Shown: positions 1 through 16,053, counted from the stretch's first letter. The stretch: DNA of 64,000 bases from Candidatus Omnitrophota bacterium (GCA_023818695.1 JAMWCF010000001.1:211306-275305); one strand, 5' to 3'. Notes: generated from the letters alone by a model not told the origin. A program made the numbers and translations.

Positions 1-1
1 C

Positions 2-601
2 CCGGCGGAGAATTTCGGGGTCCGGGTGATGTCGATGGGGTTCCTCATAGGGCCGGAGGAGGCAGTTGTCTGGCGGGGGCCGATGCTTCACGGTGCGGTC
101 AACAAGTTTCTCAAGGAGGTGCTTTGGGGGGAGCTGGATTACCTGATCGTCGATCTGCCTCCCGGAACAGGAGACGTCCAACTTTCTCTCGCACAGTCGA
201 TTCCTCTTTCCGGTGCCTTGATCGTTACCACTCCGCAGGATGTGGCTCTTCAGGATGTCCGGCGGGCGATCTCCATGTTCGAGAAGCTGAAGGTTCCCAT
301 CCTCGGCATTGTGGAGAACATGTCCTCCTTTTTCTGCCCCCATTGCGGGAAAGAGACCGAGATCTTTTCTAAAGGAGGCGGGCAGAGGGCGGCCGAATCG
401 GCCGGCGTCCCGTTCCTTGGGAAGATCCCGCTGCTGCTGGATGTGCGGATCGGATCCGATACGGGCCACCCGGTGGTGCTGACCCACCCGGACTCCCCGG
501 CCTCGATCGCTTTGTGGGAAACGGCTCAAAACCTCGCGGCTCAACTGTCGATCCTGGCCCAAAAAGAGCAGGAGCGATTTAAAGAGGTATGGAAGGTTTA
601 A
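2..601 (+). CDS. mrp: Mrp/ApbC/NBP35-family Fe-S cluster carrier ATPase, 5'-truncated by the window edge
   Basis: The frame is open from the window edge. Motifs DYLIVDLPPGTGD and CPHCG are present, with typical Mrp C-terminal architecture. Confidence 0.85.
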   Translation, partial: PAENFGVRVMSMGFLIGPEEAVVWRGPMLHGAVNKFLKEVLWGELDYLIVDLPPGTGDVQLSLAQSIPLSGALIVTTPQDVALQDVRRAISMFEKLKVPILGIVENMSSFFCPHCGKETEIFSKGGGQRAAESAGVPFLGKIPLLLDVRIGSDTGHPVVLTHPDSPASIALWETAQNLAAQLSILAQKEQERFKEVWKV

Positions 602-831
602 AAGCGGATCATATCCTCGACTGCTACGGCCTCCTGTGCCCCCTGCCGGTGCGGAAGACCGCGCAGGCCCTCAAGGAGATTCGAGCGGGGCAGATCCTCG
701 AGGTGATCGCCACCGATGAGTGGTTTGGCCCGGACTTGGAAGCATGGCTTCGCCATCAACCCCATCGCCTGCTGGCCTTCCATCGGACAGGAACCGAATA
801 TCACGCCCTGCTCCAGAAAAGGACCCCCTAG
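589..831 (+). CDS. TusA/SirA-family sulfurtransferase-like protein
   Basis: 80 aa with the family signature LDCYGLLCPLPV (CPxP active-site Cys). It overlaps the mrp stop. Confidence 0.75.
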   Translation: MEGLKADHILDCYGLLCPLPVRKTAQALKEIRAGQILEVIATDEWFGPDLEAWLRHQPHRLLAFHRTGTEYHALLQKRTP

Positions 832-1121: not shown

Positions 1122-3842
1122 ATGAGTGCACGCAAAGCGGTTGCTTGGATATTGATGGGATGCATCTGGAACTGCGCGGTACCGGTACACGCCGGGACCT
1201 TTGACCTCCGCGAAGGGGATATCAGCGTGATCCCCTCTGGGTCCGACGGAGTGAAGCCGGACGAAACACATCCCGCCTTCGCCGTTATGGCGATCCAGGA
1301 CGCCGTAATGAACCAGATGCCCGATCCCGTCTCCATAGAGGATGAAGTCTTCTGGAAGGCGGCAACACAGGCCGTCGCGGCATTCCTGCACGTGGATCCC
1401 GCCGAGATTCAGTCCATCCATGTTCCGTTTCCCGGGATTGAGCACTCGCCGGTCGATGTGGAGATGCATGACGGGCGCCATTTTATCGGCGAACTCTCCA
1501 GTTCGATGATGGTGACCGATCCGGCCCCCTATGATATGCCGAGCTACATTTCCTATGAGGTCCGGGTTCATTTTCTCATCGATTCCAACGCCGGCATCGG
1601 GACAATCCATAATATCGCCGGCTACCTGGGGATTTCATCAGAAGAGATTGCCGGCATTCGGGTGTCGGATGTCCAGATCGCCGTTTATCCGCCGCCTCCG
1701 CTGGATGTCACTGTTACTTTGAAAGACGGCGCGGAGTACACCGGCACCCTGTCGCCCGCCTACTTTGTCGGCCCCCGGACCGACGGCACCGTTCAGATGA
1801 CCGACGCCCTCGGCTACCTGATCTACCGGGTGGACTATTTGGAGGTTGTCGGCCCGGATGAAATCCCGTATGCGCGGCTGATTGCTGAATATCTCGGGAT
1901 TTCCGCGGACCAGATCGAATCGGTGGATGTGACAGTTGTCAACCCCGGGGACAAGATGTCTCCCCTGCATGTGCAGGTGAAGACCAAGGACGGCAAGGAA
2001 TACGCCGGCCAGTTGGTCGCCATCGGGATTGCCATCCACCCGCCAGGCGATAAGAACGGCGTGGGACCGGATACGGTCTTCTACGGGGTGGACTGGCTGA
2101 TCGAGTCCAACATCAATGCCGGCGGCGTCATGGCCATCGCCGAGCATCTGGAGGTGGATGTCCGTGAGATCTCTTCTGTCCGGATGTCCTGGGACGATTT
2201 TGCCGCGGAGGTCCGTCTGCGCGACGGCAGCAGGTTCATCGGTCAGCTTGTGGTCGGCGTCGTCGATTATTTTCAGGGAAATGACGGCGGATATTTCTAT
2301 GGAGTTGATTGGTTTGTTCGGGTATCCGGCAACATGGGAGTCGGATTCGGAACGGTTCAAAACATCGCCGGATTCCTGGGGATAAATGCTTCGGAGATCG
2401 CCTCGGTTGAAACGCCGGAACTGATGATCGCTGTTTGGCCGCCGCCGAAGTTGCCGGTCGCGGTGATCCTCCGAAGCGGTGCTGAATACAAAGGAGAGCT
2501 GTTCTACCCATACTACCGGTACGATCAGCCCGCTCTGACCGTAGTAGAAGGAGACCCGGGGGATATGTGGTGGCCGTATCCGGTGGACAGTTTGGGCTAT
2601 GTCATCCTGGAGGTTTCCTTCCTGCAGCCGGCCAGCCCGTATGCCGACCTGATCGCCGAATACCTGGGAATCAGCGCGGATCGGATTGAGGCGGTGGAAG
2701 TGACGCCCGTTTATCCCCGAGACCCCATGTCACCGTTGGACGTGCGGGCGAAGACCACGGATGGCAAGCTATACGTCGGGCGGCTTATCGTTGTCGGAAC
2801 AGCTATCCATGCGCCGGGAGACCCGGTTAACGGGGTAGGGCCGGACACCGTTTTCTACGGCGTGGATTGGCTGGTGGAATCCAACCTTGAGGCTGACGCT
2901 ATCTTGACGATCGCCGATTATTTGAAAATTGATGTCGATAGTCTCGTCTCTGTTATAGGTGCGAGAGGAGCCCCCCTTTCCGTGGAGGTTCGCACTGCTG
3001 ACGGTAAGACTTTTGTCGGGAACCTGGCCATCCTTGTTGTCGACTATCTCGATGGGATATCTGATGAATTCTACTTTGTGGACTGGCTGGTGGAGTCGGC
3101 GGTCGGCATCGGAACTGTCAGAAATATCGCTGCTCACCTCGGTATCCAGCCGCGGGATTTGGCTCTTATCACCGGTTCCTTTCCCCGCATTCTGAATGCC
3201 GCCGCCACCATTCAGGTGATCCTGAAGGATGGCCGGAGATTTATCGGCCGCATTTCATCCCATAACAACGGGGAAATCGATGAGTTTGGAGATCCGGTTT
3301 ACAGGGTGGTTTTTCTGATCCAAACAAATCTGGATATGGAATCGGTGGCGAGAATCGCCGTTTTCCTCGGCATCGGAGATGACAGGATATCCTCTATTCA
3401 TACGGAGGCGGCGTTCGGAGGGTTAGCGACGGAAGTCAACTTGAGGGAGGGGGCCCGTTTCATCGGGATTCTTTTCTCAAGCGACGGCGGATTCTCTTAC
3501 AAGGTAAGCTGGTTGGTGAGCGTGCCGACAGAGATCGGGGTCAGCACAGTGAAGAACATAGCGGCAGCCATCGGCGTCGGTCCGGAGAGGTTCAGTGCTA
3601 TCACCATAGAGAGCAGGACCTCGACGGGTCATCTGGTCATGCGTGTTCGGTTTTTTGACGGCACGCTTTACAGGGCCAAGCTTGCGCCGAGAGCGCGGCT
3701 CCGGGAGTACTTCGGCACAGCCGTCTGGAACGTCACTGCGCTTTGGAAACAGCATTTCAGAAAAAACGGTTCCTGGGTCTGGTGGCGGATTTTATTAAAT
3801 CCGTTTCCGGTTGTATCACCCGCCTCCCATCCGATACAATGA
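1122..3842 (+). CDS. Secreted tandem-repeat protein, uncharacterised family
   Basis: 906-aa ORF with SD gaggag upstream. N-terminal signal peptide (cleavage around VHA/G). About 10 copies of a module with the pattern IAxxLGIxxxxIxSV ... V.V..DG..Y.G.L ... Y.VDWL. Confidence 0.85.
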   Translation: MSARKAVAWILMGCIWNCAVPVHAGTFDLREGDISVIPSGSDGVKPDETHPAFAVMAIQDAVMNQMPDPVSIEDEVFWKAATQAVAAFLHVDPAEIQSIHVPFPGIEHSPVDVEMHDGRHFIGELSSSMMVTDPAPYDMPSYISYEVRVHFLIDSNAGIGTIHNIAGYLGISSEEIAGIRVSDVQIAVYPPPPLDVTVTLKDGAEYTGTLSPAYFVGPRTDGTVQMTDALGYLIYRVDYLEVVGPDEIPYARLIAEYLGISADQIESVDVTVVNPGDKMSPLHVQVKTKDGKEYAGQLVAIGIAIHPPGDKNGVGPDTVFYGVDWLIESNINAGGVMAIAEHLEVDVREISSVRMSWDDFAAEVRLRDGSRFIGQLVVGVVDYFQGNDGGYFYGVDWFVRVSGNMGVGFGTVQNIAGFLGINASEIASVETPELMIAVWPPPKLPVAVILRSGAEYKGELFYPYYRYDQPALTVVEGDPGDMWWPYPVDSLGYVILEVSFLQPASPYADLIAEYLGISADRIEAVEVTPVYPRDPMSPLDVRAKTTDGKLYVGRLIVVGTAIHAPGDPVNGVGPDTVFYGVDWLVESNLEADAILTIADYLKIDVDSLVSVIGARGAPLSVEVRTADGKTFVGNLAILVVDYLDGISDEFYFVDWLVESAVGIGTVRNIAAHLGIQPRDLALITGSFPRILNAAATIQVILKDGRRFIGRISSHNNGEIDEFGDPVYRVVFLIQTNLDMESVARIAVFLGIGDDRISSIHTEAAFGGLATEVNLREGARFIGILFSSDGGFSYKVSWLVSVPTEIGVSTVKNIAAAIGVGPERFSAITIESRTSTGHLVMRVRFFDGTLYRAKLAPRARLREYFGTAVWNVTALWKQHFRKNGSWVWWRILLNPFPVVSPASHPIQ
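1593..3103 (+). repeat. Two tandem ~750-760-nt intragenic super-repeats (1593-2342 and 2343-3103), each encoding three modules
   Basis: Collinear protein and DNA similarity. For example, 1866-2112 and 2637-2885 encode PYARLIAEYLGISADQIESVDV...FYGVDWLIESN and PYADLIAEYLGISADRIEAVEV...FYGVDWLVESN. A third, more diverged copy follows from 3104. Confidence 0.8.
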
Positions 3843-3861: not shown

Positions 3862-4674
3862 TTGTCCGGGGAAACCGCATCTCACAATCCAAGCCAGCCA
3901 AGTCGGCGCATCTATATCGACGTCGGGGGCCAGACCTGCCCGACGAAGGGTTCCGCACTCTTTCTAGAGAAGCTGAAGGCCGCCGTGCGCGAGGCCGGCT
4001 TGGAGGGGAGCGTGGAGGTGATCCCCAGAGGGTGTTTCGGACTGTGTCGACTGGCTCCGAACCTGTATGTAGAACCCGACGATGTCTGGTACTCGAAGTT
4101 CACGCTGCGGGACGTTTCAGTCATCGTCCGCCAGCATCTTCGCGAGGGCAGACCGGTCAAGCGCTTGATTCATTATCCGGATCAGGATAAAAAGGGAGGT
4201 GGCGTCATGACGCAGGTAGCGGCAGCGCGGGAAATTGAAGTGGGCGAGGCGGCGCCGGATTTTACGTTGAAGGATGAGGGGGGAAACCCGGTGACCCTCT
4301 CCAGTTTCCATGGAAAGAAAAACGTGGTCCTTCTGTTCTATCCTTTCGACTGGAGCCCGGTCTGCACGACCGAGAATTGCGCGGTCAACGACGATCTGCC
4401 GAAATTCGATTCGAAAGAAACGACCGTACTCGGCATCAGCTGCGATTCCCATTTTTGTCACCGGGCATGGAAGGAGAAAATGGGCTTCAAGCACACCCTT
4501 TTGAGCGACCAGCTTCGTGAGGTGTCGAAAAAGTACGGCCTTTACCTGCCGGACCTGAACTGCTCCAAGCGGGCGACGGTGGTCGTCAACAAAGAGGGAA
4601 AGGTCACCTATAAGAAGGTCCAGGAGCTCAAGACCGCCCGCAGCACCAGCGAGATCCTTTCCGCTCTGCGCTAG
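3862..4674 (+). CDS. Fusion of a thioredoxin-like [2Fe-2S] ferredoxin domain and a peroxiredoxin (AhpC/TSA, Bcp-like)
   Basis: TTG start. The N-terminal domain has GCFGLCRLAP and VWY...HL.EGRPVKRL, typical of thioredoxin-like ferredoxins. The C-terminal domain has PDFTL...VLLFYPFDWSPVCTTE. An internal SD-plus-ATG lies at 4207. Confidence 0.75.
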   Translation: MSGETASHNPSQPSRRIYIDVGGQTCPTKGSALFLEKLKAAVREAGLEGSVEVIPRGCFGLCRLAPNLYVEPDDVWYSKFTLRDVSVIVRQHLREGRPVKRLIHYPDQDKKGGGVMTQVAAAREIEVGEAAPDFTLKDEGGNPVTLSSFHGKKNVVLLFYPFDWSPVCTTENCAVNDDLPKFDSKETTVLGISCDSHFCHRAWKEKMGFKHTLLSDQLREVSKKYGLYLPDLNCSKRATVVVNKEGKVTYKKVQELKTARSTSEILSALR

Positions 4675-4689
4675 GCCAGGAACTCCCGC

Positions 4690-6909
4690 ATGACAAGGAA
4701 AGCGTTGGCCCTCGCGGCCGCGTGCGCAGCGGCGTTTATCTGCGGCTGCCGCGGTTCACCACCGGCTTCTGCCGATAGAAAACAGGTTGTGATGAACCGA
4801 CTCAATAACTCGACAAGCGCGTATCTGCGGTCCGCCGCTGACCAGCCGGTCGGCTGGTACGAATGGTCCGATGAGGCCTTCGCCGCCGCCAGGGAGCAAA
4901 ATAAGCCGGTCCTCCTGGACATCGGGGCCGTTTGGTGCCACTGGTGCCATGTGATTGACCGGGAATCGTATGAAAACCAGGCGATCGCCGAGATCATCAA
5001 CAGGGAATTCATCCCGATCAAGGTGGACGTGGATGTTCGGCCGGACATCGACCGCCGCTATCAGGAAGTGGTCCAGGCGATGACCGGCCACGGCGGTTGG
5101 CCCCTGACAGTCTTTTTGACCCCCGATGGCCAGGTGATCTACGGCGGGACCTATTTCCCTCCGGAGGACCGGATGGGGATGCCCGGCATGAAAACGATTT
5201 TAAACCGCGTGGCTGAGGTTTACCGAACTCAGACGAAAGAGGTTACGGCCCAAGCGCACAGGATTCATCAGGAAATCGCGCAGTTCGCCGCCGAGCAGAT
5301 CGAATCCGGCGATCTGGCCATCGATCTGGTCTCCCAGATTCTCGATGATTCCCTGAAAGGATTTGATCCTGAACAGGGAGGATTCGGGCAGGCCCCTAAA
5401 TTCCCGGCCCCGACCCTGCTGGAATTGCTGCTGCGCAGGGCTGTCGTGACCGGCGACAAGAAATATCTCGACGCAGCGACCCGGACGCTGGACGCCATCG
5501 CGGCCGGCGGCATCCGGGACCAGTTGGGAGGCGCCATCCACCGTTATTCAACGGACCGCTCCTGGAGGGTTCCGCACTTCGAGGTCATGCTTTATCTCAA
5601 CGGCGAACTGTTGAAGGTCTATTCGCTGGCGTACCAGATCACCGGTTCAAAGCGGTATGAAGAGGTCGTCCGAGGGCTTCTCGGCTACGTCAAGGGGACC
5701 CTTTCCGATCAGAGCAGAGGGGGGTTTTACGGAAGCCAGGATGCCGATTACTCCCTGGAGGACGACGGGGATTATTGGACCTGGACCGTTCAGGAGGCGA
5801 AAGCCGCGCTGACGCAGGAGGATTTTCCGGTCCTGGCCCGCTATTACGGGATCGAAGAGCAGGGGGAGATGCGGGAGAATCCCGCCAAGAACGTCCTTTA
5901 TGAAGCGGTTTCCAAGGAACGGCTGGTTCAGGAAACGGGTCAATCGATCGAGAAAATAGAGGCAACCATCCAGCGGGGCAGGCAGGCGATGCTGGCCGCC
6001 AGGGAGAAACGGCAACGGCCATTCGTCGACAAAACGATCTACACGAACTGGAACGCCTTAATGGTTTCCGGTTTTCTGGCCGCCTCCGTCGCCCTGGATG
6101 AGGAGGAACCCAAGACCTTCGCATTGAGAACGCTCAACCGGATATGGAAGGAGGGCACCGATTCACATGGCCGGCTTTATCACGTGATCCAGGAGGAGGG
6201 GCATTCGGTGAAGGGGTTCCTGGAAGATTACGCGTATCTGGCCAACGCTTTCCTGGATGCCTTTGAGGTCACCCAGCAGCCGGTCTACCTTGAGCGGGCG
6301 AAATCGCTGGCTGACCGGATGGTGGCCCTCTTCGGCGACAATGAAAAGGGTGGTTTTTTTGACGGGGAACTCCCCGAGGGCGGGATTGCCGTCCTGCAGA
6401 CCAGGCGCAAGCCGATTCAGGACGCTCCCACCCCGGCGGGCAACGGTATCGCCGCTCTTGTCATGTCCCGGCTCTTCCATTACACTAACGAGAATATTTA
6501 TTCCCAGGTCGCGGCGGACACGCTGCGCTCCTACGCAAAGACGGCAGGTGAATACGCTCTTTTCGCAGCCAGTTTCGGCATTGCGCTGGAGTCATACGCG
6601 GAGGAGCCGCTTCATGTGGTGCTGGTGGGGTCCGATCAGGATCCTAAGAAAGGATCTCTCTTGAAAGCGGTCTGGGCCGCCGGGCGGCCCCACAAAACTG
6701 TGAGGGTCATCTCTTCGGGTCAGGCGCCTGGGGACCTGCCTGAAGCACTGGAGGTATTGGTCAAAAACGTCGGGATGAGAAAGGAATCAACCGTCTTCAT
6801 CTGTTCCGGGTCCAGCTGCGCGCAGCCGACCTCGGATCCTCTTCAGGTCAAGCGCCTGATGGAATCTTTCGGTCTGTCCGGATCGGGGGCGGTGCATGGC
6901 AGGCGGTAA
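4690..6909 (+). CDS. YyaL/DUF255 thioredoxin-domain protein (SSP411-like), probable lipoprotein or exported protein
   Basis: Signal or lipobox-like N-terminus (AAFICGC). Motif [16 protein letters not shown]...[14 protein letters not shown], followed by a long alpha-toroid-like C-terminal region. Confidence 0.8.
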
Positions 6910-9334
6910 GATTTTGTTGAACCCGACCGAGGAATCGGTGCTGGAGCAGGAGGTCCGCCGCCATGTCCTGATCACTCCGTGGGACAAGCTGATCGATCTG
7001 GTTGTCGACCCGGTCTACAACTGGGGCCGTCGGAATTCCCTGTGGCCCCTCCAGTTCGGACTGGCCTGCTGTGCCATCGAGATGATCTGCACCGCCGCCA
7101 GCCGCTACGACATAGCCCGTTTCGGAGCGGAGCTTTTCCGGGCCTCTCCCAGGCAGGCGGACCTGATGATCGTTTCCGGGACGGTCACCAAAAAGATGGT
7201 CCCGATGATCGTCCGTCTGTACGACCAGATGCCGGAGCCCAAGTATGTGATCTCCATGGGGGCCTGCGCCACCGCTGGTGGACCTTTCAAAGAGGGATAC
7301 AACGTTGTTTCCGGGATCGACAAATTTCTTCCCGTCGACGTTTACATCGCCGGCTGTCCCCCGACCCCGCAGGCCCTTCTGCACGCGCTGATCACCCTCC
7401 AGGAAAAGATCAGCCGCCAGTCGGTACGGGATGTGCGCTGGTACAAACCGGGTCCCGCGCATGAGATCCCGGTGCCGGTTCTGGGGCCGGATCTGATCGA
7501 TGTCCGCCGGACGGATGAGATCCGGGCCTGCGTCGCCCCGGTTTCCACCCCCGCTCCCCCCGCTTTCATTGCGGCGCCGAAATTGACGGCCGCAGCGGCT
7601 GATGGAGCTTCTGTGAGAGCTGTGGAAGTAGCCTCCCGCCTCAATGAAGCCATCGGGGCAGGAGGTGCTGTGCCGTCCGGGCAGTCTGTGGTAGTGGATC
7701 CCGAACTGCTGGACAAAGCAGGCAGATACCTGAAGCTTCAACCGGACCTGAATTACGATTACCTCGCCAATCTGACCTGCGTTGACTACCAGGACTGCTA
7801 CGAGCTTGTCTATCACCTCTATTCCATCGGCCGGCCTTCGTCAGACCCCCTGTGCCTGAAAGCCAGGGCCGACAAGAGGAACCCGCACGCCATCTCCCTG
7901 ACGGGGGTATGGCCCGGCGCCGACCTTCAGGAGAGGGAAGTGTGGGACCTGTACGGCGTTCGGTTCCACGGGCATCCGAACCTGAAACGAGTCCTGATGT
8001 GGGAAGGGTTTGAAGGGCACCCGATGCGTCGGGATTACCTGGAGCCGTATTATGAGGCCGCTGGGAAAATCTTTCCGAGCCGCTGGAAGGAAGGGCGCCA
8101 TCAAAGGGCGGAGGAAAGGGTTCCCCTGGGGGACAACGTGAAATACCCGCCCGGTTTCGATCCCTCGGCGTACCGCCCCCAGCCGGAGCTGTTTAAGCCG
8201 GTCACTTCGAAATCAGTAGACCGGCTGAAGACCGACATGATCGCCGTCAATCTCGGTCCCCAGCATCCCTCCACACACGGCGTTTTTAGAATGCGTGTCG
8301 TCCTGGACGGGGAAAGGATCCGGGCGCTGGAGCCGGTGATGGGCTACATGCACCGCAACCACGAAAAGATCGGCGAACGAAACACCTACATCATGAACTT
8401 CCCCTACACCGACCGGCTTGATTACATCTGCTCCATGTCCAATAACCTGGGCTACGCCGTGACCGTGGAGAAGATGATGGGGGTCAAGCCCTCCGAACGG
8501 GCGGAGTACATCCGGGTCATCATGGCGGAGCTGACCCGCTTAGTCAACCATTTCTGGTCCATCGGGTTTCTCCTGAACGACCTGGGCGCCTTCTTCACCC
8601 CGGCCCTGTATGCCATTGAAGAGAGGGAGTTGATCCTCGATCTGTTTGAAATGGCGGCCGGCTCCCGAATGATGTGCAATTACATGCGGTTCGGTGGTGT
8701 GGCGGCGGATTTGCCGGAAGAGTTTCTTCCCATGGCCGACCGACTCGTCCGAGAGCGCCTGCCCAGGGCCATCGAGACGCTGGATGGCTATCTCACCAGG
8801 AACGATATTCTGCTGGACCGATGCAAGGGGGTCGGCATACTTCCAAAAGACGCAGCCGTCGCTTTTTCCGCAGCCGGGCCGGTTCTTCGGGGTTCCGGCG
8901 TGGCGTACGATGTCCGGCGGGCCGAACCGTATTCCATCTATGACCGCTTCAAGTTCGATATCCCCTCATTACCGGACGGAGACGTCTACGCCCGGTACAG
9001 GATCCGGATCGCCGAGATGCGGGAATCGCTGAAGATTCTCCAGCAGGCGATCCGGGAGATCCCCTCCGCCGCCGGGGAAGCGGAGCCGGCCAAGAAGCTC
9101 TGGAACATTCGGGTTCCCGCGGGCGAATACTACGGGCGGGTCGAGAACCCGAAAGGGGAACTTGGCTTCTACATCGTCAGCGACGGGACCGACCACCCGT
9201 ACCGTTACCACGTGCGGGCTCCTTCCTTTATCAATCTGACCGCGCTGGAACTGATGTGCAAGGGACATTTGGTGGCGGACGTGGTCGCCATCCTTGGATC
9301 GATCGATATCGTCCTGGGAGAGACAGACCGATGA
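6896..9334 (+). CDS. nuoBCD: Fused NADH:quinone oxidoreductase subunits B, C and D (NuoBCD)
   Basis: NuoB motifs ([28 protein letters not shown]), a NuoC-like segment (TCVDY...ERE.WDLYG..F.GHP) and NuoD motifs ([12 protein letters not shown]...), all in a single 812-aa ORF. Confidence 0.9.
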
Positions 9335-9963
9335 AAATCTACGGTCTGGAGCTGATCCGCGGTTTAGGCATCACGATGGGCCGGTTCATTACCACCTATA
9401 CGGTCGGGTTTCGCCGGACCTTCTCAAATCGGCTCCGGGGGCATGTCCGGCAGGATGTCTCCCAGAAAGGGATTTTCACGGTCCAATACCCGGAGGAGCG
9501 GCTGCAACTCCCGGAGCGGTTTCGGGTTCTGCCGGTTCTGATCTTCGATGGTAAAGAGGGTGAGCGATGGAGTCAGGAAACGGAACGATGCACGGCCTGT
9601 GGGATCTGCGCCAAAGTCTGCCCGCCGCAGTGCATCTGGATCGTACAGGGCAAGGATGCTTCGGGCAAGGCAGTCCCGAAGGCCTCCGAGTTCACCATCG
9701 ACACCGATGTTTGCATGAACTGTGGGCTCTGCGCCGAATTCTGTCCCTTCGATGCGATCAAGATGGATCACCGCTTCGAGATTGCCACCGAGGAGCGCTG
9801 GGTGTCGCATATTCACGATATCGATAAGCTTCATGTCTCAACGGAGTATTACGCTAAAACCCACCCAAAGGCGTGGGCGAAGGAAGAGGCCAAGAGGCAC
9901 GCTGAAGCGCAGAGGAAAGCGGCCGCTGCCGCGGCAGCAAAAAATGTGGAAAAGAAAGCATGA
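9331..9963 (+). CDS. nuoI: NADH:quinone oxidoreductase subunit I (2x[4Fe-4S])
   Basis: ATGA overlap with nuoBCD. Motifs [12 protein letters not shown] and [12 protein letters not shown]. The ORF-track start at 9256 lies inside nuoBCD and is rejected. Confidence 0.85.
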
Positions 9964-10325
9964 GTGACTACCGGATTTACCTGTTTTTAGCTCTGTTTAT
10001 GATCGGCGCGCTGGTGGTGCCGGTTCTGCCGATCGCGGTCGCCCGCTTTATCGCCCCCAGAAAACCCGGGTCGATTAAAACGGAGCCGTACGAATGCGGA
10101 ACGGTCACCGAGGGGGACGTTTGGGTCCAGTTCAAGCTGCAGTATTACATCTTCGCGATCCTCTTCGTTGTCTTCGACGTGGAGGCCCTCTTCCTGTTTC
10201 CCTGGGCGGTGGTGTTCAAGGAGGTGGGGCCGGAAGGGTTGATCGCCATGGTGGTTTTTATCGGCATCCTGACTCTAGGACTGATCTATGCATGGCAGGA
10301 GGGGGTCCTGGAATGGGAGACATAA
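9960..10325 (+). CDS. nuoA: NADH:quinone oxidoreductase subunit A
   Basis: 121-aa membrane protein with the EPYECG motif. ATGA overlap with nuoI. Confidence 0.85.
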   Translation: MSDYRIYLFLALFMIGALVVPVLPIAVARFIAPRKPGSIKTEPYECGTVTEGDVWVQFKLQYYIFAILFVVFDVEALFLFPWAVVFKEVGPEGLIAMVVFIGILTLGLIYAWQEGVLEWET

Positions 10326-11434
10326 TGCCCCAGTGGTTCTCGATCGTTCTGCTGGATATCCTCAAGATGGCCCTCATCCTGGCGGTGGTCCCGCCTTGCA
10401 TGATGTACACGACCCAGCTGGAACGCAAGGCGATCGCCCGGATCCAGGACCGGTTTGGTCCGAACCGGGTCGGCCCGTACGGCCTCGCCCAGCCCTTCGC
10501 CGACATGATCAAAATGCTGGTCAAGGAGGACATCGTCCCGAAGGGCTCCGACAAACTATGCCACCTGCTGGCCCCCCTGCTCATTGTCGTTCCGTCCCTT
10601 TTCTTGTTCACCCTGCTGCCGTTCGGACCGGGCTTCATCGCAGCCCCCATCTCAACCGGCCTGCTTTTTTTTATGGCGCTCGGGTCGACGGGAACGCTGG
10701 CGATTTTTACCGCCGGATGGACCTCCCGGTCCGCTTTCCCCCTTTTGGGGGCCATCCGCAACGCCGCCCAGCTGATCGCCTACGAAGTGCCGTTCGTGCT
10801 GGCGTCGGCGGTGATCCCCATGATCGTCGGTTCCCTGCGAATGACCGATATCGTTATGGCCCAGTCGGTTTCCGGCTGGTTCATTTTCACCCCCTGGGGG
10901 TTCACCGCGTTTCTGCTGCTTTTCACCGCGGGCTTAGCGGAAGTCAACAGGACGCCGTTCGATCTGCCGGAAGCGGAGTCGGAGCTTGTGGGCGGTTTCC
11001 ACACCGAGTACAGCGGCATGAAGTTCGGACTTTTCTATCTGGCGGAATACGTCAGCACCATCGCCCTGGCGGTCCTTCTGTCCGTTCTTTTCTTCGGCGG
11101 ATGGGCCGGGCCGAGGATCCCGTTTCTGCCGGCCCTGGGCAGCGCCATCCTCTGGATCAGCATGAAATCGTTTCTCCTCGTTTTCGTGACCATCTGGATT
11201 CGAGGAACATGGCCCCGCTTCCGCGTGGACCGGCTGATGGGCTTCGCCTGGAAGGTCATGATCCCCGTGGCGCTGGCGAATCTTGTGGGCGCGGCGGTCT
11301 GGTTCTATTGCCCCGGTTTTATCGGAACGGCGGTTTCCGCTGTGCTGGTCGTATCTGTTTTCCTGCTGACTAGCCAACTGTGGGCTGCTCCGAAACCGGT
11401 TTTAACCACCACATGGGCGGACCAGACCAGCTAG
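10325..11434 (+). CDS. nuoH: NADH:quinone oxidoreductase subunit H
   Basis: Polytopic membrane protein with RVGPYGLAQPFADMIKMLVKEDIVP. The start at 10325 overlaps the nuoA stop (TAATG). An alternative in-frame ATG lies at 10313. Confidence 0.85.
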   Translation: MPQWFSIVLLDILKMALILAVVPPCMMYTTQLERKAIARIQDRFGPNRVGPYGLAQPFADMIKMLVKEDIVPKGSDKLCHLLAPLLIVVPSLFLFTLLPFGPGFIAAPISTGLLFFMALGSTGTLAIFTAGWTSRSAFPLLGAIRNAAQLIAYEVPFVLASAVIPMIVGSLRMTDIVMAQSVSGWFIFTPWGFTAFLLLFTAGLAEVNRTPFDLPEAESELVGGFHTEYSGMKFGLFYLAEYVSTIALAVLLSVLFFGGWAGPRIPFLPALGSAILWISMKSFLLVFVTIWIRGTWPRFRVDRLMGFAWKVMIPVALANLVGAAVWFYCPGFIGTAVSAVLVVSVFLLTSQLWAAPKPVLTTTWADQTS

Positions 11435-11486
11435 CGGAGTTGACAAAAGAGGGAAGCTTTGGGAACATAACAAAGTTGCGCGTTGC

Positions 11487-11801
11487 ATGGGAAAATTCGT
11501 CAAAGTCGCTAGAATTCAAGATGTCCCCTCCGGGCAGGGCACCATGGTTGAGGTCGAAGGTCTGCAGATTGGCCTCTTCAATAGTGATGGAACTTTTTAT
11601 GCCATCGACAACGTTTGCACCCATGCGGGCGGGTCCCTGTCGGTAGGGTTGGTTGAGAACGGCAGGGTGGCGTGTCCGTGGCATGGCGCCTGGTTCGACC
11701 TCAAAACCGGGGCCGCTTTGTCGCCGCCGGCGTCGGAAGGGGTCCGATTTTACCCGACGCGGGTTCAGGGAACCGACATTGAAATAGAGCTTGAGGATTG
11801 A
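11487..11801 (+). CDS. Rieske [2Fe-2S] ferredoxin-type protein
   Basis: 104 aa with the Rieske ligands CTHAGG...CPWHG. Confidence 0.8.
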   Translation: MGKFVKVARIQDVPSGQGTMVEVEGLQIGLFNSDGTFYAIDNVCTHAGGSLSVGLVENGRVACPWHGAWFDLKTGAALSPPASEGVRFYPTRVQGTDIEIELED

Positions 11802-11847
11802 AGGAAGCCGGCATTTATCTCACTTACAACAAGGGGGGAAAGAGCGA

Positions 11848-12159
11848 ATGGCCTATGTGATTACAGGAAAGTGCTTGGGTGAACAATATGCCTCCTGCGT
11901 CGAGGTCTGCCCTGTCGATTGCATCTACCCCGGAGACTACAAGGGGGAGAAGTTTATGGTCATCGACCCAGAAATCTGCATCACCTGCGGCGCTTGTCTG
12001 CCTGTGTGCCCAATCGGCGCTATCGTCGAATCGGAAGATTACGATCAGGCATTCGCGAAAATAAACGCGGAGCTGGCCCCGAGTTTCAAGGGGAATCCAA
12101 AAGTGACACCCCGGCCCTCCAACGATCCTCCCAAGAAACCGACCAACAAGCTGGTTTAG
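11848..12159 (+). CDS. 7Fe-type (3Fe-4S plus 4Fe-4S) ferredoxin, FdxA-like
   Basis: Sequence MAYVITGKC...SCVEVCPVDCIY...CITCGACLPVCP. SD aaggggggaaagag lies upstream of the ATG at 11848. Confidence 0.8.
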   Translation: MAYVITGKCLGEQYASCVEVCPVDCIYPGDYKGEKFMVIDPEICITCGACLPVCPIGAIVESEDYDQAFAKINAELAPSFKGNPKVTPRPSNDPPKKPTNKLV

Positions 12160-12179
12160 GAAGTTTGTTCTCGATCCTC

Positions 12180-12222
12180 CGCGGGCTTCTTCCCGGACGA
12201 AGGGGGAAGAGGCCCGCGTTTT
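12180..12222 (+). terminator. Strong intrinsic terminator closing the nuo-like/ferredoxin unit
   Basis: 15-bp stem (12180-12194 with 12204-12218, one G-U pair), then TTTT at 12219-12222. Confidence 0.75.
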
Positions 12223-12236
12223 AATCTTGGAAGAAA

Positions 12237-13163
12237 ATGACCGATTTCCCGGAGTCCGGAATACGCCTTTCTTTCCCTGACAGGACTGTCACATCCGCCC
12301 AGCTGAAAATGATCGCCCGGCTCGTTACGGAGGAAGCGGGGGACCGGGCCGACATCCACGGCAGCGGGCAGATCGTGATCGACGGCATTCTCCCGTCGAA
12401 GAGGGAGGTTCTCCTGGGGGAATTGGCGGCGGCGGGTGTTCAAACCGCCGGTCCCGCGGGGGTGGAGCCGGCGGATGTCCAGAGGGATACGGCAGGCATA
12501 CGGGAGCAGTCCCATTCGGAGCTGTTTTCTATCGGAATTCCGGTCCCGCTGGCCCGGCTTTCCGGCGCGCAGCTTCGCAAGGCGGCTGACGCGGCGGAGC
12601 GGTACGGTGTCGGCACGATCCGGTTAACGAAGGAGGGGGTTCTGGTTTTTCCGGATGTGTCCAAAGAGAAGGTGGCCAACCTTCTGGAAGGCCTTCAAGG
12701 CGTCGGTCTGGGAGTGGACGTTCCTGCCATTGTGCGGGGGGCCTCTGTCTGCGTCGATACCCCCTTCCAGGGAGGCGTGGTGAATGAAGCCAAGCGTTTC
12801 TTGAAGGGGATCGTCGATCACCTGCAGGCGAGGGTTCCATTGAGCGAGCCGTTTAGCATTCGTTTATGTGCGCATACCCACGATTGCTCGTTCGTGGGTA
12901 CCGCGCATATCGGATTGGCGGCGCGTCGGCCGGAGGGAAGCGCGCAGACCTCCTGGTTGTTCGATCTGACGGCCGGCGGTCGGCCGGTTGCACAGGGGAT
13001 CTCCGGCGCCGAGATCATCGTCCGTCTAGAGCATCTGCTGGCCGGTTACAAGAAGTCCAGGAAACCGGGCGAGGATTTCCATCTGTTCTGCGCGAGGGTT
13101 GGCGAGGAGCATCTCCAAAAGATATCGGAGCTGGCTCACCCAGAACCGGATGCGGTTGCATGA
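12237..13163 (+). CDS. Nitrite/sulfite-reductase-like protein with two ferredoxin-like half-domain repeats; function unknown
   Basis: Two segments resemble NIR_SIR ferredoxin-like half domains (GIRLSFPDRTVTSAQLKMIARL... and RLSGAQLRKAADAAERYGVGTIRLTKEGVLVF). One CxxxxxC (CAHTHDC) is present, but no complete siroheme/4Fe-4S Cys pattern is evident. Confidence 0.4.
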   Translation: MTDFPESGIRLSFPDRTVTSAQLKMIARLVTEEAGDRADIHGSGQIVIDGILPSKREVLLGELAAAGVQTAGPAGVEPADVQRDTAGIREQSHSELFSIGIPVPLARLSGAQLRKAADAAERYGVGTIRLTKEGVLVFPDVSKEKVANLLEGLQGVGLGVDVPAIVRGASVCVDTPFQGGVVNEAKRFLKGIVDHLQARVPLSEPFSIRLCAHTHDCSFVGTAHIGLAARRPEGSAQTSWLFDLTAGGRPVAQGISGAEIIVRLEHLLAGYKKSRKPGEDFHLFCARVGEEHLQKISELAHPEPDAVA

Positions 13164-14284
13164 AGACGATTATTGTCGGAGCCGGGGTCATCGGGCTGGC
13201 GGTCGCGGATGAGCTGTGCCGTCGCGGCGTCGAAGTTGTCGTCCTGGACAAGGCCCCGGGATTTGGTACGGAGGCCTCCGCGGCCGCCGCTGGAATCTTG
13301 TCCCCCCAAGGGGAAGCCAAGGGGCCAGGACCTTTCTTCGATCTTTTGACGGCCGGCTTTCAGCTGATCCCTGAAACCGTCGCTCGTCTTCAGGCCGTGA
13401 CCGGCGTCGATATCGAATACAAGGCTAACGGGATGCTAGGACTGGCCATGTCCGATGATGACGAGAAGGAGTTTGAGTACCAGATGGACTGGCAGAAACA
13501 GATCGGCGTTCGGTTCGAACGCCTGACCCGCGAACAGGTGCGGGATATGGAGCCGGCCGTGGACGGCCCGGTCCGCTGGGGGGTTTGGTGGCCGCAGACA
13601 GCGCAGATGAACAACCGGAAAATGGCGCAGGCCTATGCCCTCGCCGTTGAAGCGCAGGGTGGGACCATCCGACCTTCCGTGGGAGCGATCAGGTTCCTCT
13701 CCCGCGGATCCCGGGTGACAGGGGTGGCCACGGAGCAGGGGTTGGTGGAAGGGGATTGGGTGGTGAACTGCGCCGGGGCCTGGGCCGGTTTTGACGGCTC
13801 CCTGGGGTTCGATCTTCCACTGATTCCGGTCAGGGGGCAGATCATTGAATTTCAAACATCCGTCCCCCTCATCCGGCGGGTCGTGAAAACGCCGGCGTCA
13901 TACCTCGTTCAGCGGTCCAATGAACGGTTGATTGCCGGAACGACGGTGGAGAAGGCGGGATTCGACAAAAGGGTCACCGAGGAAGGGAAAAAACAGATCC
14001 GAAAAGGGGTCATCGAAATGGTTTCACGGGTCGCCTCCCTGCCGGAAAACCAGGCGTGGGCCGGTTTGAGGCCGGGAACGCCGGACGGCCGGCCGATTTT
14101 AGGCCGGACGCCTTTGGACGGCCTGCTGGTCGCTGCGGGGCATTACAGGAACGGTGTTCTCCTGGCGCCGCTGACCGGCCGGCTCATCGCGGATCTGATT
14201 GCAAAAGGAACATGTTCCATTGATTTGATGCCGTTTTCAGCGTCACGGTTTCAAAAACAGGATTCATTGTCAAAAGGAGGGTAA
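13160..14284 (+). CDS. thiO: FAD-dependent oxidoreductase, glycine oxidase ThiO-like
   Basis: ATGA overlap with the upstream gene. Motifs IVGAGVIGLAVADEL (GxGxxG) and C-terminal GHYRNGVLLAPLTG. Confidence 0.6.
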   Translation: MKTIIVGAGVIGLAVADELCRRGVEVVVLDKAPGFGTEASAAAAGILSPQGEAKGPGPFFDLLTAGFQLIPETVARLQAVTGVDIEYKANGMLGLAMSDDDEKEFEYQMDWQKQIGVRFERLTREQVRDMEPAVDGPVRWGVWWPQTAQMNNRKMAQAYALAVEAQGGTIRPSVGAIRFLSRGSRVTGVATEQGLVEGDWVVNCAGAWAGFDGSLGFDLPLIPVRGQIIEFQTSVPLIRRVVKTPASYLVQRSNERLIAGTTVEKAGFDKRVTEEGKKQIRKGVIEMVSRVASLPENQAWAGLRPGTPDGRPILGRTPLDGLLVAAGHYRNGVLLAPLTGRLIADLIAKGTCSIDLMPFSASRFQKQDSLSKGG

Positions 14285-14287
14285 CAC

Positions 14288-14851
14288 ATGGTGACAGTAG
14301 GACAGAAAGTTCCAGATTTCGAGATTCAGGCATATCATGCTGGTGACATCCAATGGATCCGTTCATCCGACTACAGGGGAAAATGGATTGTTCTCATTTT
14401 CTATCCGGCGGATTTCACCTTCGTCTGCCCGACCGAACTGGAGGAGGCCGCGGAACTGTATGAAGAGTTCAAGAAACTCGGCGCTGAGATTTTGAGCGTC
14501 AGCACCGACACGGCTTACGTCCACAAGGCGTGGCACGATCAATCTCCGTCTATCAAGAAGATCAAATTCCCGATGGTGGCCGATCCCACTGGCAATCTGT
14601 GCAGAACGTTCGGCACCTACCTGGAGGACAAGGGCCTCTCCTTGAGAGGGTCCTTCATCATCGATCCGGACGGTGTCCTGAAGACGGTCGAAATTCACGA
14701 CAACTCGATCGGCCGCAGCGGTCAGGAGCTGCTCCGGAAGCTGCAGGCGGCGATCTTCGTCAGGGAAAACCGCGGCGAGGTGTGTCCCGCTAGCTGGCGT
14801 CCGGGCAAGCAGGCCATGAAGCCCAGTCTCGACCAGGTGGGGAAGATATAG
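14288..14851 (+). CDS. Typical 2-Cys peroxiredoxin (AhpC/Prx1 type)
   Basis: Peroxidatic motif FTFVCPTE and resolving motif EVCPASW. Confidence 0.9.
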   Translation: MVTVGQKVPDFEIQAYHAGDIQWIRSSDYRGKWIVLIFYPADFTFVCPTELEEAAELYEEFKKLGAEILSVSTDTAYVHKAWHDQSPSIKKIKFPMVADPTGNLCRTFGTYLEDKGLSLRGSFIIDPDGVLKTVEIHDNSIGRSGQELLRKLQAAIFVRENRGEVCPASWRPGKQAMKPSLDQVGKI

Positions 14852-14936: not shown

Positions 14937-15605
14937 ATGAAAAACGCGCATAAGCCGGGCGCTTCGGGACTTTATTTCGGAGCTGGTCTCTTCCTGCTCG
15001 GGGCTTTGACCACGTTCATCGTCATCTCCAACAGCAAGATGCCTCCCGAAAAACCGCTCATCACTGCTCCGGCCGTTGCATCCCTCGCCGCCGGGCGAAG
15101 CGCAGGAGACCCCTCGGCCCCGATCCAGATCATCGAGTACAGCAACTTCCACTGCAAGGGCTGCGCTTTCATGCAGCCGTATGTAGAGTCTCTCCTCAAG
15201 GAGCACGGGTCGAAAATCTACTACCAGTACAGGCATTTCTCCCATCCGAGGGACAAAAAGACCTTCCTGGCCCACATGGCGGCCCAGGCCGCCGCTCAGC
15301 AGGGAAAATTCTTCCCATACAAGAAAAAACTGTATGAATCCCAGGAAGAGTGGATGGCGGTCGAGGACCCGATCCCGCTTTTCATGAAGTACGTGGAAGA
15401 ACTTCATTTGGACCGCACTGCTTTCCTCCGGGCCGTGAAGGACAAGGGAACCCAAAAAATCATTCTTGCCGATCTGGAAGAGGCCAGAAAGGTTGGGATC
15501 CGCGTCACCCCCTCGTTCATCATCAACGGCGAGGTCGCGATGGGCGGCAAAGCGTTTAAAGAAAGGATCTCCCAGCTTCTTGGAGAACCAGTTGAAAAAA
15601 ACTGA
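14937..15605 (+). CDS. DsbA-family thiol:disulfide oxidoreductase, membrane-anchored or exported
   Basis: N-terminal hydrophobic segment, CxxC (HCKGC) and a DsbA-like C-terminal motif (RVTPSFIING). Confidence 0.8.
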   Translation: MKNAHKPGASGLYFGAGLFLLGALTTFIVISNSKMPPEKPLITAPAVASLAAGRSAGDPSAPIQIIEYSNFHCKGCAFMQPYVESLLKEHGSKIYYQYRHFSHPRDKKTFLAHMAAQAAAQQGKFFPYKKKLYESQEEWMAVEDPIPLFMKYVEELHLDRTAFLRAVKDKGTQKIILADLEEARKVGIRVTPSFIINGEVAMGGKAFKERISQLLGEPVEKN

Positions 15606-16053
15606 ACCCCTCCTGCTCCTGACAGCGCGGTTCATGATGGGCGGCGTTTTCGCGTACGCCGGTTTCGCCAAACTCCGGGAGCCGCCGGAATGGTTTCTCC
15701 AGGTGCTGGAACAATATGCCCTCATCCCCCACGTCGCGGTGCCGGTTTTGGCCCGAGTTATCCCGTGGCTAGAGTGGTTGCTCGGCGCCATGCTGCTGTC
15801 GGGTTATCTGTGCCGGTTCAGCGCTCTTTCTCTGTCAGTTTTTTCCCTCTTTTCAATCGTCTTGACGGGCTACCAGTTTTTTGCCGGTCAACTGCCGGAG
15901 GAATGCGGTTGTTTTGGGTCAGGCACCATCGAGCTGACGCCGGCCCAATCGATCTCCCTTAACTTGTTCTTGGTTTTCTCCGGTCTTCTTCTCTTCATGA
16001 GGACCAACCACCCTTACTCCCTTGATGCCGTTATTCGGAAAAGAGCCGCGTAA
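15592..16053 (+). CDS. MauE/DoxX-family membrane protein
   Basis: Four hydrophobic segments and the family motif ECGCFGSG. The start is uncertain (TTG 15592 or ATG 15634). The ORF-track start at 15466 lies inside the dsbA-like gene. Confidence 0.65.
   Translation: MKKTEPLLLLTARFMMGGVFAYAGFAKLREPPEWFLQVLEQYALIPHVAVPVLARVIPWLEWLLGAMLLSGYLCRFSALSLSVFSLFSIVLTGYQFFAGQLPEECGCFGSGTIELTPAQSISLNLFLVFSGLLLFMRTNHPYSLDAVIRKRAA

Follow-up and report, generated by a model that had tools for sequence, protein, structure and literature searches.

Does a cluster of complex I genes that stops after nuoH encode a finished enzyme, or one half of a larger one? The question is raised by a stretch of 64,000 nucleotides from a Candidatus Omnitrophota bacterium (GCA_023818695.1 JAMWCF010000001.1:211306-275305), here called the window, in which a fused nuoBCD gene is followed by nuoI, nuoA, and nuoH and then by two ferredoxin genes. 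The window NuoH is identical to MCM8811640.1, from a 697,180-bp contig of an Omnitrophica-labeled metagenome-assembled genome (MAG). We give roughly even odds (about 0.5) to the locus being the proximal half of a ferredoxin-linked complex I without an NADH module, whose dedicated nuoJ to nuoN (J-N) genes lie elsewhere in the genome. Three lines of evidence (divergence rates relative to outgroups, retained coupling residues, and a split reported in Chloroflexi) point, without proof, to J-N genes on the rest of the 697-kb source contig or elsewhere in the genome. We would file the BCD-I-A-H locus with the known EFG-less complex I enzymes (2M/11-subunit), as a new variation on their gene order and splitting.

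Subunits present and missing at the nuo locus

Gene assignments were made from Pfam and NCBIfam profile matches (Table 1). They bear out the order fused nuoBCD, nuoI, nuoA, nuoH that an earlier note on this DNA had proposed, and the Rieske-type and 7Fe ferredoxins and the terminator that it placed behind them likewise hold up (Pfam, PDB matches, and RNA folding). All four nuo genes are intact, and overlapping start and stop codons couple their translation at 9331 (nuoBCD/nuoI), 9960 (nuoI/nuoA), and 10325 (nuoA/nuoH). To call the set "re-ordered," as the note did, is an overstatement: the position of nuoA and the B-C-D fusion do differ, but NuoI before NuoH is normal in the closest, EFG-less relatives.

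The residues associated with quinone reduction are retained. In an alignment with E. coli NuoB, the four Cys of the N2 cluster (CC...C...CP) are kept in the window and in related loci of types a to d (defined below). The quinone-site His and Tyr of NuoD, equivalent by alignment to H224 and Y273 of E. coli NuoCD, are both present (QHPSTHG and RLDY), and the NuoD C-terminus reads DIVLGETDR, with no NiFe CxxC motifs. NuoI has two CxxCxxCxxxCP motifs. NuoH retains the equivalents of E36, D63, E71, and E157 plus the loop between transmembrane helices 5 and 6, and NuoA retains the FDVE motif (E. coli D79/E81). Judged by sequence, no feature required for electron transfer to quinone is missing. The acidic residues of NuoA (D/E of FDVE) and NuoH (the E157 equivalent) are strictly retained in types a, b, and d; in solved structures, such membrane-buried acidic residues of NuoA and NuoH touch NuoJ/K.

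Two other identities were considered and ruled out. An Ech/Mbh hydrogenase is excluded by the replacement of both the N- and C-terminal NiFe CxxC motifs with complex-I-type sequence; since the NiFe-binding cysteines are absent, NuoD is not from a hydrogenase. An F420H2 dehydrogenase (Fpo) is excluded by its NCBIfam scores (FpoD, 331 bits against a cutoff of 600; FpoH, 244 against 475), and Pfam scans of most window genes found no FpoF-like gene. The window NuoD scores higher with bacterial NuoD models than with NdhH models.

When the 13 E. coli Nuo proteins were used as tblastn queries against the 64 kb, only B, CD, I, A, and H were found. Pfam scans, which covered most predicted genes of the window, including all but one of at least 300 amino acids (aa), found no PF00361, PF00499, PF00420, or NuoF/G domain; the other genes encode, by Pfam, chaperones, c-di-GMP enzymes, phosphoenolpyruvate carboxykinase, and sugar-nucleotide functions. 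By these searches the locus has no NuoJ, no NuoK, and none of the three antiporter-like subunits NuoL/M/N. The N module of a canonical 14-subunit, NADH-oxidizing complex I is likewise missing from the 64 kb, where NuoF and NuoG are absent and NuoE is represented by a sub-threshold resemblance in the N-terminal 113 aa of the protein encoded at 3862-4674. This domain (3862-4200) matches PF01257 (NuoE) at an E value of 0.004 and aligns in hhalign with residues 93-163 of E. coli NuoE at 6e-4. It holds three of the four NuoE cluster cysteines; at the position of C92 in E. coli NuoE it has a residue other than Cys (Val by count), and its TCPTKGS motif has Ser five residues past the first conserved Cys, where CxxxxC would put the second. 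A small NuoE-like thioredoxin-fold domain occurs upstream of nuoBCD in all type-a loci, fused to a peroxiredoxin in the window and represented by homologs of 87 to 117 aa in L001 (9187-9540), L091 (9711-10004), and L092 (6698-6961).

The earlier assertion that nuoE/F/G and nuoJ-N are lacking from the 64 kb is therefore correct for F, G, and J-N, and for E only if canonical NuoE is meant. Its description of a minimal complex-I-like set fits the locus by tblastn and Pfam across the 64 kb but need not hold for the organism; the family includes a split mentioned in a secondary source (see below).

Related loci and known systems

The fused NuoBCD has thousands of homologs, the closest (65 to 79% identity) in MAGs labeled Candidatus Omnitrophica; among the at least 600 matches listed in a NuoBCD search of genome contigs, none was closer than 63% identity. 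For comparison we used about 90 related loci. In a neighbor-joining tree of the NuoD part (distance based, without bootstrap), the fused-BCD proteins, including that of the window, form one clade, sister to unfused EFG-less A-B-C-D-I-H-J-K-L-M-M-N operons of Verrucomicrobiota and Acidobacteriota. The window locus thus combines the Q-module affinity of 2M-type enzymes, as placed by this unbootstrapped tree, with the absence of nuoEFG from the cluster, and its complex I most likely belongs to the clade with the "2M" and 11-subunit enzymes.

Gene content varies widely within the fused clade. Type a (BCD-I-A-H) comprises the window and its close relatives L001, L091, and L092; type b (BCD-I-x-A-H) is found on the 3.03-Mb contig_53552 of ERZ25039533 and on a 553-kb contig; type c, again BCD-I-A-H, occurs in Sericytochromatia (Blackallbacteria); type d (BCD-I-x-A-H-J-K plus a single NuoN-like subunit) occurs in Isosphaeraceae, including the cultured Singulisphaera sp. 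Ch08; and type e, BCD-I only, accounts for 28 Anaerolineae loci. One Anaerolineales locus in the same clade has a full A-BCD-H-I-J-K-L-M-N set. The BCD-I-A-H order was not found in the searchable literature, and the arrangement is kept across several phyla at 58% to 79% BCD identity. An apparent NuoA-NuoH fusion in L004 (the 3.03-Mb contig, 13744-14200) was rejected: a T5 run there shifts the reading frame, the C-terminal part of NuoA continues in another frame, and the sister contig L093 has separate genes. Such homopolymer frameshifts are typical of long-read assemblies.

Unfused arrangements also occur under the Omnitrophota label. In L094 (Ca. Abzuiibacterium) the operon is complete, A-B-C-D-I-H-J-K-L-M-N, and here too I comes before H; L095 (GCA_016196405.1, 4937-11272) has A-B-C-(229 aa)-D-I-H followed by unrelated genes, with succinate dehydrogenase genes 6 kb downstream of its nuoH-ended cluster. 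The accessions of the L095 NuoH (MBI3324279) and of a type-a NuoH (MBI3322241) are only about 2,000 apart, and both partial clusters may therefore belong to one MAG. A NuoJ search of metagenome contigs with the L094 protein gave five weak loci. One of them, L100, has J-K-L-M-N and no recognized nuo gene among the larger open reading frames (ORFs) of the 10 kb upstream, but it comes from an organism with 30% G+C and tells little about the window.

The Isosphaeraceae cluster reads BCD-I-(88 aa)-A-H-J-K, then one NuoN-like antiporter subunit and a 135-aa HEPN-like protein (L087, 10001-18937; L090, Singulisphaera sp. Ch08, CP155447.1, ∼4180-13436; and L019). Neither NuoL nor NuoM was found within 10 kb of it, and the matches listed in a search with its NuoJ were all from Isosphaeraceae, at 50% identity or more. 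The cluster could be a one-pump complex I or another split. As a separate observation, a hexapeptide-repeat (gamma-carbonic-anhydrase-like) protein is encoded just upstream of nuoBCD in two distant lineages (L092, 9543-10061; L089, 8934-9494; 42% identity) and recalls the gamma-carbonic-anhydrase subunits of plant complex I; the window has no such gene.

Of the known systems, 2M-type complex I (Chadwick et al. 2018) is one of the closest, above all in its Chloroflexi form. The window shares with it the lack of nuoEFG, a B-C-D fusion as in its Chloroflexi members, a NuoD part in the same or a sister clade, what would be a split at a module boundary, and ferredoxin as the proposed partner. Unlike in the Chloroflexi split, nuoA and nuoH of the window travel with BCD-I, which places the breakpoint after H and not after I. 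The 2M hallmarks are a second NuoM and a NuoL with a lateral-helix insertion, and the window carries no L or M gene to compare. An 11-subunit complex I without the N module has also been described (Moparthi and Hagerhall 2011, PMC3144371; Desulfitobacterium, PMC11238625). It resembles the window in pairing the Q module with membrane subunits in the absence of NuoEFG, with a donor that would be other than NADH, but its 11 genes normally form one operon, whereas the window shows six subunits in four genes.

More distant systems share single features with the locus. Cyanobacterial and plastid NDH-1 depends on ferredoxin, has no NuoEFG, and is encoded in several small scattered operons; the likeness to the window would extend to all three points, yet the NDH-1 breakpoints are different (ndhCKJ, ndhAIGE, and ndhH), and oxygenic-specific Ndh subunits form its ferredoxin site. 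The group 4 [NiFe] hydrogenases Ech and Mbh are small, complex-I-like, and ferredoxin driven, with homologs of NuoB, C, D, I, and H, but in the window the large subunit lacks NiFe cysteine motifs while retaining the His/Tyr of the quinone site, and NuoA is present. To our knowledge, Ech always has at least one antiporter-like subunit. The mitochondrial Q-module/ND1 intermediate (49-kDa, 30-kDa, PSST, TYKY, ND1, and ND3) is generally known to contain the same subunits and to be paired with an Mrp/NBP35-type (NUBPL/Ind1) factor; unlike the window set, it is a transient form, neither a gene cluster nor a finished enzyme.

One half of a split complex I or a whole enzyme

If the locus is a proximal half, it would supply the electron wire and quinone site (NuoBCD and NuoI) and the membrane heel that closes the quinone cavity (NuoH and NuoA). 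Reduced 7Fe ferredoxin would dock near NuoI, assisted by the basic NuoI tail, and could itself be reduced by the 2-oxoacid:ferredoxin oxidoreductase (OFOR) that is encoded in the same operon in a close relative. Electrons would pass from NuoI clusters N6a/N6b to N2 and on to (mena)quinone bound between NuoD, NuoB, and NuoH. A conformational or charge signal through the acidic residues of NuoH and NuoA would then reach NuoJ, NuoK, and the antiporter-like subunits and drive proton pumping, with the J-N genes located in another part of the genome, an arrangement reported for the Chloroflexi enzymes of this family.

The report in question is a passage of PMC7117926 which, citing Chadwick 2018, places nuoBCDI of the Chloroflexi 2M complex I apart from the rest of the operon. 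Going by that passage, operons of the family readily break at module boundaries without any subunit being lost. The 28 Anaerolineae BCD-I-only loci match the split described there and, on account of it, do not count as evidence for truncation. Within H-terminated clusters, NuoH and NuoA have diverged from outgroups no more than in full operons (H/D identity ratios to outgroups, 0.91-1.05 against 0.95-1.10). The kept coupling residues, the lack of acceleration in NuoH and NuoA, and a ferredoxin-to-quinone potential gap that would be costly to waste together favor a split.

Several observations weigh against a split. No J-N genes were found within 10 kb of nine distinct H-terminated clusters, some of them on contigs of 0.25 to 3 Mb. 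Fused and unfused lineages alike show a break behind nuoH. In Isosphaeraceae, the cluster has N and lacks L and M and looks like the product of internal deletion or stepwise loss rather than of translocation or random splitting, and NuoA D79 is replaced by Ser in the Sericytochromatia (type c) version. We infer the presence of J-N elsewhere from a search that covered the 64 kb here and the 10-kb surroundings of relatives, and the Chloroflexi split is taken from a secondary citation of Chadwick 2018 in the passage named above. A preprint on complete Omnitrophota genomes (10.64898/2026.06.07.730766) speaks of "fragmentary complex I" and gives no per-subunit tables.

The same observations lend themselves to a different account, in which NuoBCD, I, A, and H (the Q module plus the equivalents of ND1 and ND3) form a stand-alone, non-pumping ferredoxin:quinone oxidoreductase that builds no proton gradient and feeds low-potential electrons to the quinone pool, for example in fast redox balancing or in defense against oxygen or peroxide. 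BCD-I-A-H is exactly what an electron wire and a closed quinone cavity need, and H-terminated clusters appear in at least four lineages, both in a fused architecture (types a, b, and c) and in an unfused one (L095). They adjoin genes for peroxiredoxins, thioredoxin-like proteins, hemerythrin, and nitroreductase. When mitochondrial complex I is assembled, a Q-module/ND1 subcomplex forms as a stable intermediate, and loss of the distal pump modules leaves complex I active; both facts suit such an enzyme, as does the type c Ser. The Isosphaeraceae relative with one antiporter-like subunit suggests a truncation series: the fused-BCD clade would descend from three or four pumps in full operons through one in Isosphaeraceae to none in the window, other Omnitrophota-labeled MAGs, and Sericytochromatia, with the window enzyme as a pumpless end point. 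We consider this series a tentative proposal. Against the stand-alone enzyme in general, the acidic residues that NuoA and NuoH strictly keep in types a, b, and d are difficult to account for if NuoJ/K are absent, neither subunit evolves at an accelerated rate, and wasting a driving force of ∼350 mV between ferredoxin and quinone would be costly for organisms of energy-poor groundwater. A sister lineage has, moreover, the split cited at second hand above. We give the stand-alone account a smaller, though real, probability than the split.

A third possibility is that BCD-I-A-H serves as a second, ferredoxin-accepting head and heel on the NuoJ-N arm of a canonical complex I encoded elsewhere, giving one pump with two interchangeable electron-input ends. 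In L007 and L021, a fused BCD-I lies directly upstream of a canonical operon (nuoA-B-..., running into the contig end, and nuoA-B-CD-E-F-G-H, respectively), and Sericytochromatia genomes often have multiple copies of some complex I genes (PMC8235220), which would fit. No genome among the loci compared was shown to hold both a canonical operon and BCD-I-A-H, and NuoH and NuoA would need to fit NuoJ/K of a distant paralog. Cyanobacterial NDH-1 does exchange complex I modules, which would be in keeping with such an arrangement, but there the distal ones are exchanged; we know of no precedent for exchange at the proximal end, and the idea is unlikely. That the locus is a functionless, decaying remnant of a complex I operon is highly improbable: J-N are missing from it, but its four ORFs are intact, the catalytic residues are all retained, and the arrangement is conserved in several phyla at the BCD identities given above.

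Electron donor and neighboring genes

The question of the electron donor is an axis separate from that of split versus stand-alone. In each of the four distinct loci of type a (the window, L001, L091, and L092), the gene directly behind nuoH encodes a 7Fe ferredoxin, with 77 to 90% identity. The window protein has the pattern Cx7Cx3CP ... CxxCxxCxxxCP, from which its cluster content is assigned, and its top PDB matches (1frk, 1bc6, and 2v2k) are 7Fe ferredoxins of Azotobacter, Bacillus, and Mycobacterium. The L091 operon reads BCD-I-A-H-Rieske-ferredoxin-sulfite reductase-DAO-OFOR, with gaps of 4 to 35 nucleotides (nt), and so adds genes for OFOR alpha/gamma and beta. OFOR homologs lie within 10 kb of complex I genes in nine loci from three phyla (L060, L049, L059, L066, L008, L018, L023, L024, and L091; Acidobacteriota, Anaerolineae, and an Omnitrophota-labeled MAG). 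Coupling to ferredoxin has been proposed before for 2M complex I (PMC6606698). This comparative context supports the suggestion in the earlier note that the enzyme would be driven by ferredoxin rather than NADH.

The ferredoxin link is good for the lineage of the window and is not general, since no more than two of the four type-a loci have the Rieske gene (the sole homolog at the equivalent position, in L091, is 56% identical) and no ferredoxin gene adjoins the cluster in types b, c, and d. Both facts would also fit an explanation in which the ferredoxins are neighbors and not partners, serving the sulfite-reductase-like, DAO, and Thi4 sulfur/thiamine genes while the complex uses another donor. 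Sulfite/nitrite-reductase-like and DAO genes do stand behind the ferredoxin gene in the window, L001, and L091, as Thi4 does in L092, and a TusA gene lies upstream. Yet the strong terminator of the window parts the ferredoxin gene from the reductase-like gene and groups it with nuoH; in L092 the ferredoxin gene stays beside nuoH though the reductase is absent; and the reductase-like protein of the window is shortened and has lost its cluster cysteines. We regard unrelated ferredoxins as improbable.

NuoI offers a possible docking aid. Its Lys/Ala-rich tail in the window is 27 residues long, with 10 Lys or Arg in 40 residues, and types b and c carry C-terminal extensions of ∼140 to 170 residues that are rich in Lys, Ala, and Glu and contain exact internal repeats, e.g., AEKPAKKVLSDEEKAALKEAALKKAAELKAKKEAEKAA twice (L004, 12424-13353; L088, 12493-13473; L089, 12481-13494). 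From its composition, the basic tail could attract acidic carriers. A Lys-rich tail is also found in Methanosaeta FpoI.

An Mrp/NBP35 gene is the first ORF of the window, 6.3 kb upstream of nuoBCD. Between the two lie genes for TusA, a 906-aa protein, the ferredoxin-like/peroxiredoxin fusion, and a DUF255 thioredoxin protein. The window Mrp is 72% identical to that of L001, and in L001 and L008, where the gene is full length, the product carries an N-terminal FeS_assembly_P domain in addition to ParA/NUBPL. The earlier note had pointed to this gene as a relative of a mitochondrial complex I assembly factor, and comparison strengthens the remark, with the reservation that the gene is truncated and some distance upstream: every type-a locus and 19 loci of Anaerolineae show Mrp linked to fused nuoBCD, and the gene was absent beside the unfused 2M loci compared. 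In these 19 loci (L008, 13020-14418; L016, 13056-14501; and 17 others), BCD-I is followed by a conserved four-Cys protein of ∼115 aa with two CxxC pairs and no Pfam family, and then by Mrp/NBP35, PSP1, and PIG-L genes. The conserved linkage supports a putative Ind1-like role for Mrp/NBP35 in complex I assembly.

Table 1. Features of the nuo region, in positions of the 64-kb window
Feature	Coordinates	Strand	Evidence or remarks
Mrp/NBP35 (NUBPL/Ind1-type P-loop Fe-S cluster carrier)	1..601	+	5' end cut by window edge; PF10609 ParA/NUBPL, E 1.7e-69
TusA-like sulfur carrier	589..825	+	tblastn with L001 TusA, 59% identity, E 2e-31
906-aa secreted-looking protein	1122-3842		Between TusA and the ferredoxin-like/peroxiredoxin gene
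NuoE-like (thioredoxin-fold, ferredoxin-like) domain fused to BCP-type peroxiredoxin	3862..4674	+	AhpC/TSA, E 7e-38
DUF255 thioredoxin-domain protein	4690..6909	+	PF03190, E 7e-69
NuoBCD fusion (Q module: N2 cluster, quinone site)	6896..9334	+	812-aa single ORF; Oxidored_q6 (NuoB), Complex1_30kDa (NuoC), Complex1_49kDa (NuoD)
NuoI (2x[4Fe-4S]) with Lys/Ala-rich C-terminal tail	9331..9963	+	TIGR01971 and Fer4 matches
NuoA	9960..10325	+	PF00507, E 4e-36
NuoH	10325..11434	+	PF00146, E 3e-108; 42% identity to E. coli NuoH
Small Rieske-type [2Fe-2S] ferredoxin, 104 aa	11487..11801	+	PF00355, E 4e-19; CxH...CxxH motifs
7Fe-type ([3Fe-4S][4Fe-4S]) ferredoxin, 103 aa, basic Pro/Lys tail	11848..12159	+	7Fe Cys pattern; best PDB matches are 7Fe ferredoxins
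Intrinsic-terminator-like hairpin (15 bp, 12180-12218) plus UUUUAAUCUU	12180..12229	+	RNA fold -39.3 kcal/mol, z = -2.66
Downstream trio: shortened sulfite/nitrite-reductase-like protein, DAO-family flavoprotein, 2-Cys peroxiredoxin	12237..14851	+	Pfam

One strand carries every gene from Mrp through the second peroxiredoxin. The DUF255 gene, which has a homolog at the equivalent position in L092, shares 14 nt between its stop and the nuoBCD start. The Rieske gene begins 52 nt behind nuoH, and the 7Fe ferredoxin gene follows after a further 46 nt, on the nuo side of the terminator: a G+C-rich hairpin and then UUUU stand right behind it. A generic terminator scan missed this hairpin because its loop is 9 nt. 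L001 has the order Mrp-TusA-ferredoxin-like-Prx-BCD-I-A-H-Fd-reductase-like-DAO-Prx (Prx, peroxiredoxin; Fd, ferredoxin), and the Mrp-TusA pair is also found in L091. Relative to L001, the window has the 906-aa and DUF255 genes inserted, the ferredoxin-like and peroxiredoxin genes fused, and the Rieske gene added. The 906-aa protein is made up of about ten diverged modules of ∼80 aa with a recurring "IA.YLGI....I.SV" motif and faint LSM-like Pfam matches; no DNA-level tandem repeat was found in its gene.

The trio of reductase-like, DAO, and peroxiredoxin genes behind the terminator recurs in L001, and L091 has a full 504-aa reductase with DAO and OFOR; the trio may or may not work with the nuo genes. 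At 308 aa, the window reductase-like protein (12237-13163) is without the first catalytic half of the L091 enzyme (15031-16545), and its cluster cysteines are lost or re-spaced, so that reductase activity is unlikely. Right behind the second peroxiredoxin (14937-16053) come genes for a thioredoxin-fold protein like DsbA and for a MauE/DoxX membrane protein, which add to the thiol-redox flavor of the region. From the company of Mrp, TusA, the NuoE-like mini-ferredoxin, and thiol peroxidases on the same strand, we suggest that the Fe-S-rich module may have its own machinery for cluster insertion and for protection from oxidative stress.

If the pump genes are merely elsewhere, the locus would be one more operon split of the EFG-less, ferredoxin-type complex I, and its value would lie mainly in annotation, where pipelines now report "partial complex I" for genomes of this kind and the label "subunit D" is wrongly given to the fused protein. 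The synteny of an Ind1/NUBPL-type Mrp with Q-module genes in two phyla provides a bacterial handle on the insertion of N2, N6a, and N6b, and the recurrent ferredoxin and OFOR neighbors are concrete candidates for the electron donor of the family. Should the locus instead encode a whole enzyme, this would be the first quinone reductase of the complex I type to lack antiporter-like subunits altogether and, together with the one-pump version of the culturable Singulisphaera, would allow a direct test of what quinone chemistry requires of complex I and what coupling requires.

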